Virus record (IMG/VR): IMGVR_UViG_3300023184_000048
Location: 52,742-116,741 of that record
DNA: 64,000 nt
Origin: a virus
Reading direction: 5' to 3' (one strand)
Below are positions 23,621 to 52,766 of the stretch, one piece after another (position 1 is the first letter of the stretch; every line of letters begins with the position of its first letter). The translations under genes were made by a program, and so were the position numbers. The notes beneath the pieces were generated by a model. That model was given only the letters and a program-made list of their open reading frames with translations, did not search any database and was not told where the DNA came from.

Positions 23621-23908
23621 ATGATACATAGAGACGGATACACTGAATATAATAATGAGGAATTGAAGAAGCAAAACACCCGAGAATTATTGGCACACTT
23701 TGACAATATTCGCGCATATAGACAAAATGCTTTTAAGCATGTCGAATATCAACAAGAGCGATTAAAAGAGGCAGAATGGTCATTGAAACTTTATGATAAT
23801 TATTTGGTGGAGTTGAAGGATATCCTTTCAACAAGAGAAAATATTCCAAATAAACAAGAAGCTAAAGCTATCCGACAACAACAAGCAAAAGATAAGAAAA
23901 ATCGGTAA
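23621..23908 (+). CDS. Hypothetical coiled-coil protein
   Basis: ORF track. Confidence 0.7.
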   Translation: MIHRDGYTEYNNEELKKQNTRELLAHFDNIRAYRQNAFKHVEYQQERLKEAEWSLKLYDNYLVELKDILSTRENIPNKQEAKAIRQQQAKDKKNR

Positions 23909-23933
23909 TTAAAAACTAGGATATAATACTCGT

Positions 23934-24380
23934 ATGAATATTAGAGAACAAGCACTTGCCTTTGCCACTAAAGCACATAAAGGACAATTTAGAAAGAACA
24001 GTAAGTTGGAATATATCACACATCCGATTGCTGTTGCTGAAATTGCTGAAAAACTATATGTCGATTATTTGGGAACAGATAAAACAGATGATGTTTATGT
24101 TGCAGCGATTCTTCATGATGTGATTGAAGACACTAAATTCACGTATGAAGATATCGAAAAAGAATTTGATGGTTTTATAGCAAACAGGGTTAAAGGGTTA
24201 ACTAGAGGAGAGGGTGAGTCATATTTCGATATGATTATGAGAATTTCTGAAGGTTACTTCATGGATGCCATCATAAAATTAGCTGATAACATTCACAATT
24301 CATCTGATCTGAAGGAGGGATCTTTAAAAGATAAATATCGCTTTTCGCAACATATATTAAGAAGTAGATTTGAAACATAA
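23934..24380 (+). CDS. HD-domain hydrolase (SpoT/MESH1-like)
   Basis: AHKGQ.RK....YITHP.AVA, AAILHDVIEDT, IKLAD..HN. Confidence 0.9.
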   Translation: MNIREQALAFATKAHKGQFRKNSKLEYITHPIAVAEIAEKLYVDYLGTDKTDDVYVAAILHDVIEDTKFTYEDIEKEFDGFIANRVKGLTRGEGESYFDMIMRISEGYFMDAIIKLADNIHNSSDLKEGSLKDKYRFSQHILRSRFET

Positions 24381-24381
24381 T

Positions 24382-24693
24382 ATGCAAGTAATTATTACAA
24401 AAGTCAAAACTGTCGATATTGATTTGGATGCTGAACGTAAGAAAATCAAGAAAGGCTTTAATAAGAAATCCGAAAGAATCTATCGTGATAAGCTTCTTGA
24501 AGTGATTGATATATTTGAACGGGATGGATTTAATATGGCATGTGACGCTTATGATGAACTACCCTATAATGAAGTGGATGAATACCCTCTACAAGAGAGT
24601 ATGGGTATTTGGTGGTGGCAAATTGTCAATGATCAGAGTTTTAATTATCATGATAATGTCAAGCATCAGTATAAGATGGAAATAATTAAATGA
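24382..24693 (+). CDS. Hypothetical protein
   Basis: ORF track; start refined. Confidence 0.7.
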   Translation: MQVIITKVKTVDIDLDAERKKIKKGFNKKSERIYRDKLLEVIDIFERDGFNMACDAYDELPYNEVDEYPLQESMGIWWWQIVNDQSFNYHDNVKHQYKMEIIK

Positions 24694-24989
24694 CTAATTT
24701 AGAAATAGCGAAAGATATTCAAAAAGCTTATAAGCTTTTACTGGATAAAACGTCTTGGAAAGCGACCACGGGTAGTCATAAGGCTGCTTGTGATGTTATC
24801 AGCCAAATGACATCATATCATTTAGCTTTGAAAGCTTTTGGTTATATGACTAATGATGAAGGAAAATTGGTGAAATATAAACCAAGAGTCTTATCGGAAT
24901 ATGAACAACTGGTAATGAATACTACCTCTGGGAAAGAATCAGATGCTCAGAAACTGTTAGATTATATCTATACACACGGAATACAATAA
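24690..24989 (+). CDS. Hypothetical protein
   Basis: ORF track. Confidence 0.7.
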   Translation: MTNLEIAKDIQKAYKLLLDKTSWKATTGSHKAACDVISQMTSYHLALKAFGYMTNDEGKLVKYKPRVLSEYEQLVMNTTSGKESDAQKLLDYIYTHGIQ

Positions 24990-25014
24990 TTAAAAACTAG
25001 AATATAATCACAAC

Positions 25015-26106
25015 ATGAAAATCAAATTTAATGATTACAATTTGGAGGGTTTTAATAAGAAAGAGGTGTTGTTTTGTGGTATCGAAGCAATTTTAATCAC
25101 TCCTGATGATATTAAGTCTAAGTTTACCCAAGATAATAAGATCTTCAGATCATCAATTTGGTCCAGAGACGGTGAATTATTATCAGCTTCGTTTCCTAAG
25201 TTCAAAAATGCAGGTGAAGACCCTGATAATTTTCCAATGCCTAAATCTTTGGATGGTGTTGGTATCGTTACTAAAATCGATGGATCTACTTGTATTGTTG
25301 ATTTTGTCAATGGTGAATTTTCAATGAGAACCAGAGGAGTTTCATCATACTTGACACAGGCTAATTATAAAGATTTTGAGTTCTGTATTGAGAAGTATCC
25401 CAAAATCAAAGCTAGTATAATGAACAATCCTGATTATTCGTTTATCTTTGAAATTGTCACACCAAACCAAAAAATTGTTCTTGATTATGGCCCTGAGCCA
25501 GATGTTATCTTGATCGGTGCTATTGATAAGAATCAGTATTGGATTGTGGAACAACGATATCTTGATAATCTAGCTGAAGCTATTGGTGTCAAACGTCCAG
25601 AATATCATAATTTTGATTCATTTGAAGATATTTACGAATTTTGTAAAATCAATAGAACTATCGAAGGGTTTTGTTTATATTTTAATAATGGTCAATCGAT
25701 TGTGAAGGTGAAGACTGATTTTTACCTAGCATTGCATCGTCTCTTTTCGGGAATGAAGACTATCGGTAATGTGATTGATGTGTTCCTCACAACCCCAAGG
25801 TTTACGAAGTATTCAGATTTTTATGAATTTATCTGTGTAAATATGGACTTTGAGTTAGCTGAACGTTGTAAGGATGATATCCTGAAGGTTGTCGTAGCTT
25901 ATTGTAAGGTTCTGGAAAAAATTGAAATGATTAAAAATGTGATCAATAATGTTCGGGGTGATTCATTCACTCGTAAGGAACAAGCTTTAGACATCATGCA
26001 ACATTATGGTGGGGATATAAGACAAAAAATAGCATTTTTGTTATTGGATGATAAACCAATACCGGATAATATTTTAAAGATGTTTATAGAACATGAGTTA
26101 CAATAG
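25015..26106 (+). CDS. RNA ligase, T4 Rnl1-like
   Basis: SFPKF.N, motif I TKIDGS, TRG, FIFEI, EGF.L, VKVKT. Confidence 0.8.
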   Translation: MKIKFNDYNLEGFNKKEVLFCGIEAILITPDDIKSKFTQDNKIFRSSIWSRDGELLSASFPKFKNAGEDPDNFPMPKSLDGVGIVTKIDGSTCIVDFVNGEFSMRTRGVSSYLTQANYKDFEFCIEKYPKIKASIMNNPDYSFIFEIVTPNQKIVLDYGPEPDVILIGAIDKNQYWIVEQRYLDNLAEAIGVKRPEYHNFDSFEDIYEFCKINRTIEGFCLYFNNGQSIVKVKTDFYLALHRLFSGMKTIGNVIDVFLTTPRFTKYSDFYEFICVNMDFELAERCKDDILKVVVAYCKVLEKIEMIKNVINNVRGDSFTRKEQALDIMQHYGGDIRQKIAFLLLDDKPIPDNILKMFIEHELQ

Positions 26107-26910
26107 TTTGAACTTACACTTATCAAAGTGCCACCTAGTTGAATTTTGTGGTGTTAATGATAAATTACAATGTGGGCAGGATACTTTAGATCTATTGTTA
26201 GCTGAATCCCGTATATTTTCAATTTGAGCTTGAGTCCTCTTCAACCCTCTAATTTTAGAGGCTCCCTTTTCCACAGAATCTCTTGATCTTTTTTTACCTT
26301 TATGAGATTTAGAAATTTTATCTCTAGTTTCCTGTGGAATAGTTTTCCCTAAGTTTCTTAATCTATTCTTTTCTATGTCCTCCAGTGATCTCTTCTTACC
26401 TTTTTGTGCTATAGACATTTTAATTTTTGATTCTTCTGTGTGTTTTTGGCCCAATCTATTTGTGTTTCCCATTTTAGATAATGATAATTTTCTTTTTCTT
26501 TCGTCAGATGCTTTGTGACCCAAACAATAGGTGTTTCCTTTATGAAAATTTGATATTTTTCGTTTCGTTTCTTCTGTATGTTTCCTACCCAACCAAACTT
26601 TTGAGTTGGAACCCCTTTCAGATATATTATAACCATGAGGAGCAATTGTATTAAATCTCTTAATTAATTCTTCTTCCAAATTTAAAAGATCATCCTTGGA
26701 AAAATTGGGGAGATACTCAATATACACACTAAAATTATCGATGCCGTATTTTACAAATGCCTTATGAATTACTTGCTCCTTTCTATTTTTATGACTATTC
26801 AATCTTTTATGTATATTAACAGATTCTCCAATATAATGCTTATTGTTTATCGTGTTTGTTATTATATACACACCTCTTTCCTTTTTCAAATCTTTAAAAG
26901 ATATCCCCAT
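26098..26910 (-). CDS. GIY-YIG homing endonuclease with multiple NUMOD3 repeats
   Basis: GVYIITN..N.KHYIGES..I.KR..H, E..LI, GYN; repeated HTEETKRKIS-like units. Confidence 0.9.
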   Translation of the reverse strand: MGISFKDLKKERGVYIITNTINNKHYIGESVNIHKRLNSHKNRKEQVIHKAFVKYGIDNFSVYIEYLPNFSKDDLLNLEEELIKRFNTIAPHGYNISERGSNSKVWLGRKHTEETKRKISNFHKGNTYCLGHKASDERKRKLSLSKMGNTNRLGQKHTEESKIKMSIAQKGKKRSLEDIEKNRLRNLGKTIPQETRDKISKSHKGKKRSRDSVEKGASKIRGLKRTQAQIENIRDSANNRSKVSCPHCNLSLTPQNSTRWHFDKCKFKLL

Positions 26911-26915
26911 ATTAC

Positions 26916-26921
26916 TATTTA
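26916..26921 (-). promoter_or_regulatory. Late-type promoter TAAATA, 5 nt before ATG 26910
   Basis: Minus-strand TTAAATA-GTAAT-ATG. Confidence 0.6.
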
Positions 26922-26973
26922 ACAACTTTATATACTTTTGATATTCAGGTATCTAAAAACTAGATCAAAATCC

Positions 26974-27072
26974 GGTTTCAAAAAGTCGATGGCATTCCTT
27001 TTGCTTGACAATAAGGAGATCCCTGATACTTTGTTGAGGACAGCGATTGAAGAAACGATTGAAAAGATCTAA
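26974..27072 (+). pseudogene. Orphaned 3' end of the RNA ligase gene
   Basis: Translates ..MAFLLLDNKEIPDTLLRTAIEETIEKI*, versus ligase C-terminus IAFLLLDDKPIPDNILKMFIEHELQ*. Confidence 0.8.
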
Positions 27073-27101
27073 ATTAAAAACTAAAACATAATAAACATAC
27101 A

Positions 27102-28004
27102 ATGAACACGACACAGAAAAAACAAAATAGGAACAGTGATTTTTTTGAAGACCTTATCAAAGGATCTACAAAATCGTTCATCCCTAAAAAAGTTAAGACA
27201 AAACAAGCAGAATGGATTACAATTAATCCACTTCAGAGTAAGCATATTCTGAAGTTTTATAATAACGGAAATCGTCGTCCTTCGAAAAATCAAGTTCTCA
27301 AATATTCCAAGGATATGGAGAATGATAACTGGAAGGAGACTGGAGAACCGATTTCATTCGATAAAAATGGAAATGTTATCAATGGTCAACATAGACTTTA
27401 TGGAATGATTCTGGCAGACAAAGAATATGAATTTCTGGTAAACTATGGTCTAGATCGAGAAGTGTTTGATGTTATTGATAATGGTTTGATTCGACCCAAT
27501 TCAACAATCCTAGAGTTGGAAGGTCATTCGGATACTGTCAATCTATCTGCTCTCGTTCGTGCCATCATTGCTTACACCGATAATGGTAATTATGATGCGA
27601 AAGATTTCAAAGGAGTCAATCAAATTACCATTAGTCAAATCAAAGATTATCTGAAGGATAATGAGGATGTGGTAGATTATCTTGATCGATATAAGAAAAG
27701 TGCGGTTGTGTCATGTTCAATTTCGTCTTTTTGTTATTGGTTACTTTCCACTGTTGATAAGACCGAAGCTGAAAATTATTTGGATATGGTTTTTATGGGA
27801 TATGGACTGACCCCAAACACCATCGAGCATTATCTTTTTGATAAACTTCAACGTAACAAGAATGCAACACAAAACAAAATGACCAAGACTGCCATCATCT
27901 GTAATGTTATTCTTGGTTGGAGACGTTATATGGGATGGTCTAAGACTAAAGCTATGCAAATCACTTGGGATGTTCGCAAAGGCTTTCCAAAGCCAACAGA
28001 ATAA
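27102..28004 (+). CDS. ParB/Srx-like N-terminal domain protein
   Basis: NRRPS...V.KY..DM....W...GEPI.F...G.VINGQHRL. Confidence 0.7.
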   Translation: MNTTQKKQNRNSDFFEDLIKGSTKSFIPKKVKTKQAEWITINPLQSKHILKFYNNGNRRPSKNQVLKYSKDMENDNWKETGEPISFDKNGNVINGQHRLYGMILADKEYEFLVNYGLDREVFDVIDNGLIRPNSTILELEGHSDTVNLSALVRAIIAYTDNGNYDAKDFKGVNQITISQIKDYLKDNEDVVDYLDRYKKSAVVSCSISSFCYWLLSTVDKTEAENYLDMVFMGYGLTPNTIEHYLFDKLQRNKNATQNKMTKTAIICNVILGWRRYMGWSKTKAMQITWDVRKGFPKPTE

Positions 28005-28240
28005 TGAAACTTTTGCCAATTCATAGATATGATTCACAAACTCAATTGTCGAAATTGAAAGAAGTTTGCAATAAGATATATATCGCCAGAAATATCTCTT
28101 TAAGTCAAGAAGGAGTCATCAAACAACTTGAAGTGATCGACACATTATTCCGAAGTGATAATGAAGATTACGATATGTATGATGAAAAACAGGCTAATGA
28201 GAGATATGGTGATTTTGATGTTACAGAATTTCATTATTAA
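28004..28240 (+). CDS. Hypothetical protein
   Basis: TAATG overlap. Confidence 0.65.
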   Translation: MKLLPIHRYDSQTQLSKLKEVCNKIYIARNISLSQEGVIKQLEVIDTLFRSDNEDYDMYDEKQANERYGDFDVTEFHY

Positions 28241-28261
28241 AAACTAGAATATAATCAAGAT

Positions 28262-28645
28262 ATGAAGTTTGAAGATTTTAAAAAAGATTTTGATGAAAAA
28301 TTGGCAACTATGTCTGATGATGACCTTGTTGAGTCGTTCGCTGATATGGGAGTTGATGTAACTATTAAGAGAATGAAAACATTGCTATTTCTAAATCCGG
28401 GTTGGGGTGTTGATTTCATGCTGAAAAGAAGAATGATGGCCGAAAACATTGAACATCCATATATTTCTCTGTTTGAGGATTTGGAGAACAAAAAGACAAA
28501 CGATAAACTCTACAAAAAACACGAAATCAAATCAACTCCTGTCTTGATTGTTCTTGACAAAACAGAAGAGGTTGATAGAATAACAGGAGTAGAAGACATT
28601 CTAAAATATTTAAAAGACAACAATGAATCAATTGATAAAATTTAA
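28262..28645 (+). CDS. Thioredoxin/glutaredoxin-fold protein lacking CxxC, with N-terminal extension
   Basis: KHEIKSTPVLIV...EVDRI.G cis-Pro motif; PGWG at the active-site position. Confidence 0.55.
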   Translation: MKFEDFKKDFDEKLATMSDDDLVESFADMGVDVTIKRMKTLLFLNPGWGVDFMLKRRMMAENIEHPYISLFEDLENKKTNDKLYKKHEIKSTPVLIVLDKTEEVDRITGVEDILKYLKDNNESIDKI

Positions 28646-29291
28646 GTGGGATGAAAAAGATAATTTGTATTTTTCTTCTGATTTTCACTATAATCATAAA
28701 TGTGAAACTTGGGAAGTGCCTCTTTGGAAAGTAAGGGGTTATGATAGTGTTGAACACGCAAATGAATCACAAATCAACCAGATTAATAAATCTGTTCCAG
28801 AGAATGCTACTCTCTTTTATACAGGAGATACGGCTTTAAATGCTGATGAGGACATTGTGCTGGACCTCTGGAGTAGAATTAATTGCAAAGATATTAGATT
28901 CATTTATGGGAATCATGATTTGATCATGTATCGACTTTATAAACAAGAGCTTAAGAAGCAGTATGGCTTAGAGGGTGTTGAGCTTTATCCGCTCAAGATG
29001 AATAATGTGACTTATCTTGGAAATTATGCGGAGATTCAAGTGGGTAAGAAAAAGATTACCCTATGTCATTACCCTATCAGAAGTTGGAATCAGGCTGGAA
29101 GAGGTTCCATCAATCTTCACGGTCATTCTCACAATAATGATCCAACTAGAAATCCTGACTATCATCTTGGTAAATGCTTAGATCTTAGCTGGGATTGGAA
29201 AAAAGATGTCTGGACATTTGACCAAATCATGGATGTAATGTCAACTAAAGAGATCCATGTCACTGATCACCATGATGTGGGAGTAAGATAA
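28623..29291 (+). CDS. Calcineurin-like metallophosphoesterase
   Basis: FSSDFHYNH, TGD, GNHD, LCHYP, HGHSH. Confidence 0.85.
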   Translation: MNQLIKFKWDEKDNLYFSSDFHYNHKCETWEVPLWKVRGYDSVEHANESQINQINKSVPENATLFYTGDTALNADEDIVLDLWSRINCKDIRFIYGNHDLIMYRLYKQELKKQYGLEGVELYPLKMNNVTYLGNYAEIQVGKKKITLCHYPIRSWNQAGRGSINLHGHSHNNDPTRNPDYHLGKCLDLSWDWKKDVWTFDQIMDVMSTKEIHVTDHHDVGVR

Positions 29292-30890: not shown

Positions 30891-31445
30891 ATGAATATCT
30901 TCCCAATTGCAGATAATTATTGTCCTATTAAATCTGCTCAAGAACTTTGTAATCGTCACAGTTCAAGAATGCCCTTAGAGACAGCGGGTATGTTATCCTT
31001 TGCATTTCCAGAAGGTGATACATCTATCAAAAACGATAGAAAAAATAGACACTATATCCACCCAGCTAGTAAATGGGTAAGAGAATCATTAGAAAATTTT
31101 GAATGGACTGTATTACATGGTTTGGCCCAATGTGAAGAATATACAATTCGATATAAACGTAGACATGCTTCTCAAGATTTTATAGAATGGGCTTCCGATA
31201 ATTATAAGTATCTAACCTTTAACGTTAATGAGTTTACACCATTTGCTAGATGCTTTGGACCATTCAAAGATTTGTTGGATTCGGAAGAATCAAATACATT
31301 ACAAGCATATAGAAAATTTTACCATTTAGATAAAAGAGATTTTGCCAAATGGCCACAGATCAAGAAAATACCTGATTGGTGGGATGATATAACAAATGAT
31401 TATGTGGATAAATCATTTGTTAATGGGGATTATTCAAAAAGATAG
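30891..31445 (+). CDS. Pyrimidine-dimer DNA glycosylase/DenV-related protein
   Basis: MNIF....CP..SAQ.LC.RH..RM.LE.A.MLS, HP...W.R.S..N..W, EY..RY.R.H, AYR.FY. Confidence 0.75.
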   Translation: MNIFPIADNYCPIKSAQELCNRHSSRMPLETAGMLSFAFPEGDTSIKNDRKNRHYIHPASKWVRESLENFEWTVLHGLAQCEEYTIRYKRRHASQDFIEWASDNYKYLTFNVNEFTPFARCFGPFKDLLDSEESNTLQAYRKFYHLDKRDFAKWPQIKKIPDWWDDITNDYVDKSFVNGDYSKR

Positions 31446-31474
31446 ACAACAATACAAAACTATTCATTTTAGAC

Positions 31475-31480
31475 TAAATA
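31475..31480 (+). promoter_or_regulatory. Late-type promoter TAAATA, 6 nt before GTG 31487
   Basis: CTAAATA-GTTTAT-GTG. Confidence 0.55.
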
Positions 31481-31486
31481 GTTTAT

Positions 31487-32245
31487 GTGAGTGATAAAAT
31501 AAATATACCAGTTGATATCAAATTAAAAATTGTTGAAGATTATAAAAATCTGATAAGAAATGATGAGATATGTTCAAAGTATGATCTAACTGCCCCTAGG
31601 TTGTATAATATTTTAAAGGAATATGATATTCCCAAAAAAGGACCAAGAAAATCAGAAGCTAGATCTGGTGAAGATATAAAATGTTTAAAATGTGGTTGTC
31701 AAAAACATCAATCACAATTTCCGAAAGTGAAGGGGGTTTATAGAACATTGTGTAAAACATGCCATTGTCATAATGAAAAAATCCGAAGAAGTAAAATGTC
31801 ACCAGAAGAGAAAAAACTTATAGGCGAGAGATGTTATAATATTGTCAAAGCAAAAAAACTTAAAGCATCTAGAGGAGAACTTCCACTATCAGATCAAATA
31901 TACATATGGGTGAATAAAATAACTGGGAGAAGAACTGAGGAAAGATTCAAAGAAAGAAAGAAATTATGTAAAAACATTTTAACCAAAAAATGTTATTCAG
32001 CCAGACAAATATTTCCCGATATTATATTCTGTTTTGTGAATAATACAGGTCAAAATAGAGCAATGATAGCATCTTTAGATAGAATTGATCCATCGAAGGG
32101 ATACACAGATGAAAATACCCAAATTATACCATACTGGTTAAACTCGGCCAAGTTGGATTCTTCACAAGAAGAAATAGACAATACAATAATTAATTATATA
32201 TTAAATGATCAGAAATTATTAGATTCCTTAAAATCAAAGATCTAA
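31487..32245 (+). CDS. Putative homing endonuclease (HTH + CxxC Zn finger + His-Me/HNH-like domain)
   Basis: CLKCG..CKTC; SLDRIDPSKGY...N.Q....WLN.AK. Confidence 0.75.
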   Translation: MSDKINIPVDIKLKIVEDYKNLIRNDEICSKYDLTAPRLYNILKEYDIPKKGPRKSEARSGEDIKCLKCGCQKHQSQFPKVKGVYRTLCKTCHCHNEKIRRSKMSPEEKKLIGERCYNIVKAKKLKASRGELPLSDQIYIWVNKITGRRTEERFKERKKLCKNILTKKCYSARQIFPDIIFCFVNNTGQNRAMIASLDRIDPSKGYTDENTQIIPYWLNSAKLDSSQEEIDNTIINYILNDQKLLDSLKSKI

Positions 32246-32584
32246 TCTAATCATCCAAGCAGCATTTGGCTGAGAACAAGTTATGACAATTTTCTTTGGG
32301 GTATTGAACATGCGTATGCTATTGCAAATGAATACACTGAACGTTACAGTAAGAGACATAAATCTGAAGATGTTCTTGATTGGATAGAATCAAATATGTG
32401 GCAGTTGTCATTTGATTCTAACGATTTGACTCCTTATGCCATTGCGATTACAGAGGATGCGGTTTGTAGAACATTGCCCGAATTTAATCAAGTTGACACT
32501 ATCAGTAAATACCGCTTATTTTACAAGTATGATAAAGCCCATCTTCATAAGTGGAAACAAAATAAACCAGATTGGATTGATTAA
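32246..32584 (+). pseudogene. Orphaned 3' half of a DenV-related gene
   Basis: Start-less frame NHPSSIWLRTSYDNF.W..EH..A...EYTERY.KRH...YRLFY..DK..KW..PDW parallels residues ~55-184 of 30891..31445. Confidence 0.85.
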
Positions 32585-32710: not shown

Positions 32711-33745
32711 TTAATCTGGAATTTTCCGACCAATAGAATTAAGAATTTCATTTCTTTTCTGAATAGCTTCTTCTAAAGTTTTTGCATTTGGTCTATATAT
32801 CTTCTCCCCAGACTGTATATAGATTCTATAATAACCATTATCAAATCCTATATTAGCATGTTTGATTTTTTTAGCTTTTTGTATGACTGTTTTGGGATGT
32901 GTGTAATTAGTTGATTTATACTGTTCGAGTTTTTCTGGAAAATTTAAATGGTCAAGATTTATATTATTGCACACATTTAAAAAATCAGCCATTTCTGCTG
33001 CTTCATCTTCAAGTGTAAAGGTTCCCAGCCTAGATTCAAAAGTTTTTGTATTGATGTGAATCCTCCAAACATTGAATCTAGGCTCGTAGCACACCCAATT
33101 ATATTTGGAAACTTTTAAATTCCTTTTCAGTGTTCTTTCTGGGGATGCGTGAATTCCTAGAATATAATTATCAAAATTTTCAGGAAAGTTCATCATCAGT
33201 TTAGCTGATTCATGATCAAATAGTTCTAAAAGTTTTACATCTCTAGCGAAAGCTGCATCTTGATCAGTTTTGAAATTTTTCTGAGAAACTTTCTTTCTAT
33301 TAAAAGTTATACAATAATCCCATCTTTCCATATCATTATTAAAATAAACGCCGATATAAATGGTCTTTCCATTATATCTATCTGAAAGCTTTTCTTTTTT
33401 TGACTTCTTGAGTCCCTCAACTAGAGAGATCTTCATAGCATCTGTGAATTCTCCAGATACAGAATTTTCTATAATATTATAACCATTTTTGGTAGTCAGA
33501 GAATTATACAAGTTTATGTAGTGTGTCTCTTTAATAAGAGCTGATCCCAGATCAATTGCAGTATCAATTTTCTCAATCTTGAATTTGTCTTTTCCATACT
33601 TTATCATGGCATTTCTCAACGGGAGATTGGTATTTTTCTTTTTGGAGAAATGGCCATTTAACCTAAGATTAAGTGGTTGTTTTGTTATTCCAATATAAAC
33701 CTTATCATTTACACTATTTGTTATTTTATAAATCTTTCTCTCCAT
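32711..33745 (-). CDS. GIY-YIG endonuclease with three AP2-like DNA-binding domains
   Basis: IYKITN..N.KVYIGIT...L..R..H, E...I, GYN; YIGVYF..AAFARD, YNWV..LGTF..EDEAA..AD, TLEEAI.KR; start refined to ATG 33745. Confidence 0.85.
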   Translation of the reverse strand: MERKIYKITNSVNDKVYIGITKQPLNLRLNGHFSKKKNTNLPLRNAMIKYGKDKFKIEKIDTAIDLGSALIKETHYINLYNSLTTKNGYNIIENSVSGEFTDAMKISLVEGLKKSKKEKLSDRYNGKTIYIGVYFNNDMERWDYCITFNRKKVSQKNFKTDQDAAFARDVKLLELFDHESAKLMMNFPENFDNYILGIHASPERTLKRNLKVSKYNWVCYEPRFNVWRIHINTKTFESRLGTFTLEDEAAEMADFLNVCNNINLDHLNFPEKLEQYKSTNYTHPKTVIQKAKKIKHANIGFDNGYYRIYIQSGEKIYRPNAKTLEEAIQKRNEILNSIGRKIPD

Positions 33746-33750
33746 ACATT

Positions 33751-33756
33751 TATTTA
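33751..33756 (-). promoter_or_regulatory. Late-type promoter TAAATA, 5 nt before ATG 33745
   Basis: Minus-strand CTAAATA-AATGT-ATG. Confidence 0.6.
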
Positions 33757-33803
33757 GTCCATAACTACCGAAAATCAATTAAAAACTAGATTACAATACA
33801 CAC

Positions 33804-52658: not shown

Positions 52659-52766
52659 TATCACCAAGGGATTTGAATATCTCATAATAGCTTAATTAAA
52701 GCCTTCGTATAGTAACGATGAGTTCTGGTAATAATCCAGTTATGAGTAAAAAATCCCTTGGTGATA
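52659..52766 (+). ncRNA. Cloverleaf RNA mounted on a perfect 16-bp stem
   Basis: TATCACCAAGGGATTT/AAATCCCTTGGTGATA; CTCATAA/TTATGAG; GCTT/AAGC; TCGT/ACGA; CTGG-N7-CCAG. Confidence 0.65.

Follow-up and report, generated by a model that had tools for sequence, protein, structure and literature searches.

How can a phage RNA ligase gene have an endonuclease gene within its 3′ part when the ligase still ends in a complete C-terminus, and why does a second, silent ligase end stand behind the endonuclease gene? The locus that raises this question is part of a window of 64,000 nucleotides (nt), the whole stretch of DNA analysed here, which comprises positions 52,742 to 116,741 of the 116.7-kb IMG/VR virus record IMGVR_UViG_3300023184_000048. 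The window encodes rIIA, rIIB, an Rnl2-like ligase and a Dda-like helicase and thus belongs to a large T4-like phage, which occurs in lake and freshwater metagenomes and is known from metagenomes only; in the phage collection, a DNA search gave no match and a protein search only relatives below 30% identity. With a probability of roughly four in five, an I-TevI-type GIY-YIG endonuclease gene entered the 3′ part of the ligase gene as a 966-nt cassette which brought a substitute gene end with it. Such a cassette would consist of 32 codons and a stop taken from another ligase allele, together with the minus-strand endonuclease gene and the beginning of the promoter that served the next gene in the donor. 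For the comparison of alleles, contigs from four independent metagenome runs were placed on positions 24000-28700 of the window; of these, run X3 is from a study and year other than the likely source sample, and X2 from a further study. The features of the locus, with the evidence for each, are as follows.

25015-26106, plus strand: RNA ligase open reading frame (ORF), 363 amino acids (aa); Pfam RNA_lig_T4_1 (PF09511).
25015-26007, plus strand: resident part of the ligase, codons 1-331, ending in ...QHY; Pfam RNA_lig_T4_1, PHROG 562, cover of 25531-26007 by X3.
26008-26973, no strand: the whole inserted cassette, 966 nt, which replaces CCACTA (6 nt) of the endonuclease-free allele; X3 joint 26007->26974.
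26008-26106, plus strand: foreign ligase 3′ end, 32 codons (GGDIRQKIAF...HELQ) and TAG; missing in X3, codon usage, G+C content.
26098-26925, minus strand: free-standing GIY-YIG endonuclease gene, 275 aa; GIY-YIG and three NUMOD3, TIGR01453, PHROG 314.
26926-26973, plus strand: right-hand spacer of the cassette, 48 nt, with the promoter-like element AAAAACTAGA; 29-copy element, spacer skipped by X3.
26974-27072, plus strand: orphaned native ligase end, 32 codons (GFKKSMAF...IEKI) and TAA, frame intact; contiguity in X3, match to P0060 and P0023.

The ligase, the inverted GIY-YIG gene and the downstream remnant are all found where a preliminary description had placed them when it proposed that a homing endonuclease insertion had swapped the end of the ligase gene. 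That description had named the comparison with an endonuclease-free relative as the way to the junction, and the X3 run provides one. A 975-nt contig from this run (record 12, depth 5.8) lies on 25531-26007, continues with CCACTA, and then follows 26974-27064 and 28000-28402. Its first joint skips exactly the 966 nt of 26008-26973, and because 26007 joins 26974 through CCACTA, the X3 relative is without the whole cassette, which in the window sits directly after ligase codon 331. The joint is in codon phase, as 26007 is the last letter of codon 331, CCACTA encodes Pro-Leu and a codon starts at 26974, so that a single uninterrupted ligase frame runs through ...QHY-PL-GFKKSMAF... to the orphan stop region. 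The endonuclease-free relative therefore carries the orphan end and not the current one; the reverse, which the preliminary description had named as its refutation, is not what is seen. At this one site the cassette is absent from the X3 contig and present in X2 and in the source sample; in X2 the pieces of the carrier form are 100% identical to the window, the right joint 26973/26974 not being among them. A search with short and partial proteins for the product of the X3 contig found nothing.

The sequence behind the cassette thus has the properties of the native ligase end. First, the remnant is real, but the description of it as start-less and as covering 26989-27072 needs amending: its Met is no start codon but the conserved internal Met of the family (KSMAF), and since the homology to real ligase ends already begins at 26974 (GFKKS...), five codons before the quoted peptide, the orphan is taken as 26974-27072. 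Next, two of the 120 database ligase homologues, P0060 and P0023, end in the orphan sequence with 29/32 and 26/32 identical residues, respectively, which is not a chance resemblance. These two are also the closest relatives over ligase residues 245-331 (62% and 70% identical, respectively), and as they are closest both to the orphan and to the 87 residues that precede it, the orphan continues the resident gene. Finally, P0060 reads Tyr-Pro-Leu-Gly-Phe at the joint, with the same Pro-Leu as the X3 allele, and the orphan and the X3 allele are approximately 87% identical in DNA. A degenerate DNA pattern for the orphan peptide matched nothing in IMG/VR or in the JGI metagenomes.

The end that the ligase now expresses is of a different kind. 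The two ends are parallel, as had been noticed earlier, with 13 of 25 residues identical over the quoted part, though they are far apart: protein identity is about 50%, the BLOSUM score is 71 as compared to 156-165 for each end against itself, and about 55 of 99 nt are identical in DNA, the longest exact shared run being 6 nt. The best score of the expressed end against any database ligase end, 88, is not markedly above the 71 that it reaches with the orphan (self-score 165). None of its 5-residue words is shared with a database ligase, and a word search with the last 42 residues of the ligase returned only the protein itself, so that no donor lineage was found by it. The codon usage is more telling. 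Of the Ile and Leu codons, ATA and TTA account for 7 of 10 in the expressed end and 19 of 43 in the endonuclease gene, as compared to 7 of 53 in the ligase body (codons 1-331), 206 of 1303 in the other long ORFs of the window and none of the 9 in the orphan. The expressed end differs from the ligase body (Fisher test, p = 5e-4) and cannot be told apart from the endonuclease gene (p = 0.18), in agreement with the likeness to the endonuclease noticed in the preliminary description. For ATA alone, there is a single case in codons 1-331, as compared to four in codons 332-363. The switch falls within codons 325-335, and the left joint that it places agrees with that of the X3 contig. The G+C content is 28% in the expressed end, 33% in the ligase body and 38% in the orphan, on few bases. 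Judged by these codons, the expressed ligase end is foreign and bears a signature like that of the endonuclease gene. The X3 joint, the ends of P0060 and P0023 and the codon usage together bear out the proposal that a replacement C-terminus restored the gene and left the old end orphaned.

The endonuclease gene is convergent with the ligase gene, the two overlapping by 9 nt at their 3′ ends, and starts with a TTG at 26925, with an ATG also available at 26910. The protein matches Pfam GIY-YIG with 43 bits, contains three NUMOD3 stretches (56.6 bits), scores 115 bits against the I-TevI-type subfamily TIGR01453 (cut-off 56) and matches the homing endonuclease family PHROG 314; its Cys/His-rich tail gives a weak match to a zinc-binding family. 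In an alignment to the I-TevI catalytic domain (1LN0/1MK0), counterparts of Y6, Y17, G19, R27, H31, E75 and N90 are kept, and because all these catalytic residues are in place, the enzyme looks functional. The 116.7-kb record has four GIY-YIG genes (G000:C1 6829-7086, 59529-59762, 79370-79615 and 86220-86474), the one studied here included, and the genome is rich in homing-type nucleases.

The extent of the cassette on its right side is illuminated by a promoter-like element. The sequence ATTAAAAACTAGA occurs in 29 copies in the window as compared to 0.55 expected, 28 of them on the plus strand (for example at 24992, 26955 and 28239), and is normally followed by a TATAAT-like hexamer and, about 5-9 nt further on, by an ATG; it looks like the early promoter of the phage, with very short leaders or none. 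The copy AAAAACTAGA at 26955-26964 in the cassette spacer has a weakened hexamer and ends right after it, at the start of the orphan, without the usual ATG. Judging from this layout, the cassette probably ends inside the promoter of the donor's next gene, and the truncated copy suggests both that the donor was a phage of the same group and that the right joint is non-homologous.

A plausible course of events can be proposed for the insertion. During a co-infection, the enzyme would cut an endonuclease-free ligase allele near codons 331-333, the left break end would invade the donor ligase gene in the conserved stretch ending in ...QHY, and repair synthesis would run on through the end of the donor ligase gene and the endonuclease gene into the next promoter, of which a part would be copied. 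The right side, which has no homology, would be sealed illegitimately to a break end resected by six bases, with the loss of the two codons for Pro-Leu. As the donor end is copied in the repair, the ligase would keep a complete, family-like C-terminus, and the native end would stay behind as an orphan. The anatomy of the locus fits such one-sided homologous repair of a double-strand break. Since 966 nt now separate the two halves of the old recognition region, of which the downstream one is recoded, the enzyme should spare the allele that carries its gene, and the swap would accordingly be one that removes the recognition site; once formed, the cassette could home into free alleles using the orphan as the right-hand homology. 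The steps are drawn from the anatomy of the locus and the known behaviour of the T4 Seg enzymes and I-TevI (PMC2988022).

Several points weigh against this reading. The donor genome was not found, and there is no close relative of the endonuclease: the best in IMG/VR is 39% identical, and none of the relatives there at or below that identity is informatively placed beside a ligase gene. A convincing promoter for the endonuclease was not seen, as the promoter-like sites around the cassette are not above chance, and the same holds for a terminator scan of the same surroundings. The endonuclease-free allele comes from one 975-nt contig at a depth of 5.8, and with about 87% identity over the ligase part X3 is a relative and not the direct ancestor; P0060 and P0023 were compared at the level of their proteins. 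That this enzyme cut the allele, where it did so, how the break was repaired and that the cassette still moves is what we infer from the locus. The structural and historical part of the homing reading, that is, the anatomy, the presence or absence of the cassette with exact joints, the native orphan, the foreign end and the intact catalytic residues, is supported by observation; its enzymatic part appears plausible.

The main rival explanation, unlikely but the only one of some weight, is that ordinary or illegitimate recombination of co-infecting phages, for example at promoter-like elements, carried the endonuclease gene along as a passenger and left the duplicated end as a by-product. Such an event has parallels nearby, as neighbouring gene-sized indels (27064->28000 in X3 and 23905->24988 in X2) end at or beside a promoter-like element and contain no endonuclease gene, and the right end of the cassette itself falls within one; the element thus also looks like a mark of the ends of exchangeable gene cassettes. 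The left joint is of another kind, however: it lies inside the coding sequence, at a conserved stretch, with the frame and a full-length C-terminus kept, and such a joint is the signature of endonuclease-driven insertion in the mobile ORFs of fungi (PMC3630166). A mere passenger is further at odds with the intact endonuclease ORF with all its catalytic residues, and with a second locus of the same design and a different nuclease family, described below.

It is improbable that the ligase 3′ end was duplicated in place and diverged, with a later endonuclease insertion and nothing foreign involved. The two ends are indeed homologous and in the same orientation, but duplication predicts a conserved expressed copy and a drifting silent one, and the opposite is seen, the silent orphan sharing 81-91% of its residues with real ligase ends, as compared to an identity of only about 50% between the expressed end and the orphan; moreover, the expressed end has the codon usage of the endonuclease. 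More improbable still is that the endonuclease-free form of X3 arose by secondary deletion of the cassette from an older two-ended state. Homing endonuclease genes are known to be both gained and lost, which would permit such a deletion, but the Pro-Leu codons (CCACTA), present in the X3 joint and, as Pro-Leu, in the distant P0060, are missing in the window, and with no shared run above 6 nt, the two ends offer nothing that could guide a precise deletion. The missing Pro-Leu codons and the lack of homology for a precise deletion argue, as far as the sequences tell, that the endonuclease-free form came first and did not arise by deletion. A group I intron of 966 nt whose splicing would join codon 331 to the orphan, suggested by the subfamily name 'group I intron endonuclease' (TIGR01453), is just as improbable and was rejected, as a search of 25500-27500 gave no Rfam intron or other RNA family even at E <= 1, the endonuclease is encoded on the strand opposite to the ligase, and at the start of the insert there are 32 in-frame codons of a ligase-like end with a stop, which an intron would not need.

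Returning to the insertion with a substitute end, the gene that received it is, by profile comparisons, a distant member of the T4 Rnl1 (RnlA) family. The protein scores 34.5 bits against Pfam RNA_lig_T4_1 (PF09511; cut-off 28.3) and also matches PHROG 562, and its profile aligns to residues 67-264 of T4 Rnl1 (2C5U) with E = 2.4e-14, the K-x-D-G, E-G and K-x-K motifs included; the K, D, G, E-G and K-x-K positions are invariant in the ligase alignment A1. The profile was required for this, as the single sequence gave no PDB match by phmmer; the score of 55.6 bits against TIGR02308 (T4 RnlA equivalog) is below the cut-off of 242, and in the profile comparison the C-terminal domain does not align to T4 Rnl1. 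With the single protein as the query, IMG/VR contained no close relative of the ligase, and a search of the JGI metagenomes with the protein found nothing. The profile found 29 loci in IMG/VR, all at most 50% identical to its first sequence (P0060) and with a metallophosphoesterase gene 0.2-3 kb after the ligase; none of the 29 is close enough for mapping the joint.

Apart from the cassette, the ligase body itself is a mosaic, with a break close to where the nucleotidyltransferase domain gives way to the C-terminal domain. Over residues 1-235 the best matches are P0002-P0005 (60-69% identical), which resemble the ligase little in their C-terminal parts (23-41%), whereas over residues 245-331 they are P0023, P0031 and P0060 (62-70%), with an identity of 34-38% in the N-terminal parts. 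The X3 contigs share the N-terminal part of the ligase with the window at 94-100%, so the mosaic predates the cassette. In P0060 the end is 91% identical to the orphan and the preceding 87 residues 62%, and judging by these values, lineages may have exchanged the end of the ligase gene at a later date than its remainder. From run X4 comes a contig that resembles the window only on the right-hand side of 26036, a position within the foreign end; its letters on the left-hand side occur nowhere in the window. It may represent the cassette in another ligase background but is not used as evidence.

The flanks of the locus also vary among the runs. Directly behind the orphan, the ORF at 27102-28004 (300 aa) is missing in X3, whose contig jumps from 27064 to 28000 and in which the ligase gene and the one after it share letters at stop and start (TAATG). 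The 300-aa product matches PHROG 5931 (unknown function), contains an NGQHR motif with a weak match to the DGQHR domain, and has look-alikes in the Atlas named DGQHR or ParB_N. On the other side, an X2 contig that matches the window from 24988 on has the exact letters of 23876-23905 just before; this variant is without about 1.08 kb (23906-24987; joint 23905->24988) and without the three ORFs there, which are an HD-domain gene at 23934-24380 and the ORFs at 24370-24693 and 24690-24989. X3 has yet another joint at 24047->24378.

A second locus of the same design is found about 4 kb downstream, at 30891-32584. A 184-aa gene comes first, which weakly matches pyrimidine-dimer glycosylase. Next come a 252-aa ORF matching endonuclease VII-type phage families and, behind it, 110 codons in which residues 57-165 of the 184-aa gene recur at 39% identity (E = 1e-25). 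A further GIY-YIG gene follows on the minus strand at 32711-33778. It is a tentative proposal, doubtful as it stands, that cassettes with a recoded target-gene end are a regular route of homing endonucleases into the coding sequences of T4-like freshwater phages; if true, phage lineages would thereby shuffle the C-terminal tips of their RNA-repair and DNA-repair enzymes. The orphan ends could persist as landing pads for later exchange, or could be expressed from the promoter fragment of the cassette.

The ligase locus shows a free-standing homing endonuclease gene that has settled inside a phage protein-coding gene without the help of an intron or intein. Its free and carrier junctions provide a substrate pair on which a new I-TevI-type enzyme can be examined for target recognition and self-immunity. 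In annotation, short ORFs without explanation that follow a phage endonuclease gene are worth checking as orphaned gene ends, and ligase-like genes adjoining such elements may be chimeras.

Among known systems, the free-standing endonucleases of T4-like phages, SegE, SegF and SegG (GIY-YIG) and MobE, spread by intronless homing with co-conversion (PMC2988022). The present endonuclease resembles them as a free-standing GIY-YIG gene beside conserved genes with a presence/absence polymorphism, and spread by double-strand-break repair with co-conversion of flanks is likewise to be expected. The classical Seg and Mob genes, however, lie between genes and are accompanied by no duplicated gene end, whereas the gene described here lies inside its target together with a substitute end; for the T4 enzymes cleavage and biased inheritance have been demonstrated, whereas this locus is known from sequence alone. 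In the 'HEG-islands' of ICP1-like phages, gene fragments homologous to full-length neighbours adjoin homing endonuclease genes (HEGs) (PMC10055350), which recalls the short remnant of a neighbouring gene in the present case. The remnants in those islands are described in general terms, with essential genes flanked by endonuclease genes, while here the free allele maps the joints to the base and the expressed end is foreign. T4-like genes can also be split by endonuclease cassettes, such as nrdA of Aeromonas phage Aeh1 by mobE, and both loci have an endonuclease gene inside a conserved phage gene whose function is kept; in Aeh1, though, the two halves are both expressed, whereas in the ligase one end has been replaced and the old end is silent.

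The closest counterpart is found in fungal mitochondria. Their mobile ORFs (mORFs) combine an endonuclease gene with a foreign C-terminal piece of atp6, atp9, cox2 or nad3, with the native C-terminus left behind them, and the native piece is closer to the sister species than the inserted one (PMC3630166). Cases are atp6, atp9, cox2 and nad3 of Glomus sp., atp9 of Rhizopus and cox2 of Mortierella (PMC3630166 and work it cites), the original one being, as cited there, atp6 of Allomyces macrogynus. As in the mORFs, a foreign gene end fused in frame (codons 332-363 and TAG) closes the host gene of the phage cassette, and the native end is kept behind the element and is closer to the relatives than the inserted end. 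The mORF endonuclease is encoded on the same strand as the host gene and often in phase with it, whereas here it is on the minus strand and convergent; the phage host, the I-TevI-type GIY-YIG enzyme, the accessory RNA-repair target and the piece of the donor's next promoter carried along are further differences. The locus thus works like an mORF but is not a sequence relative of the mORFs, and it links phage biology to the mobile ORFs of fungal mitochondria, the tentatively proposed route into phage coding sequences being the counterpart of theirs. It is not a new kind of element but a clean phage example of a design known from fungal mitochondria.

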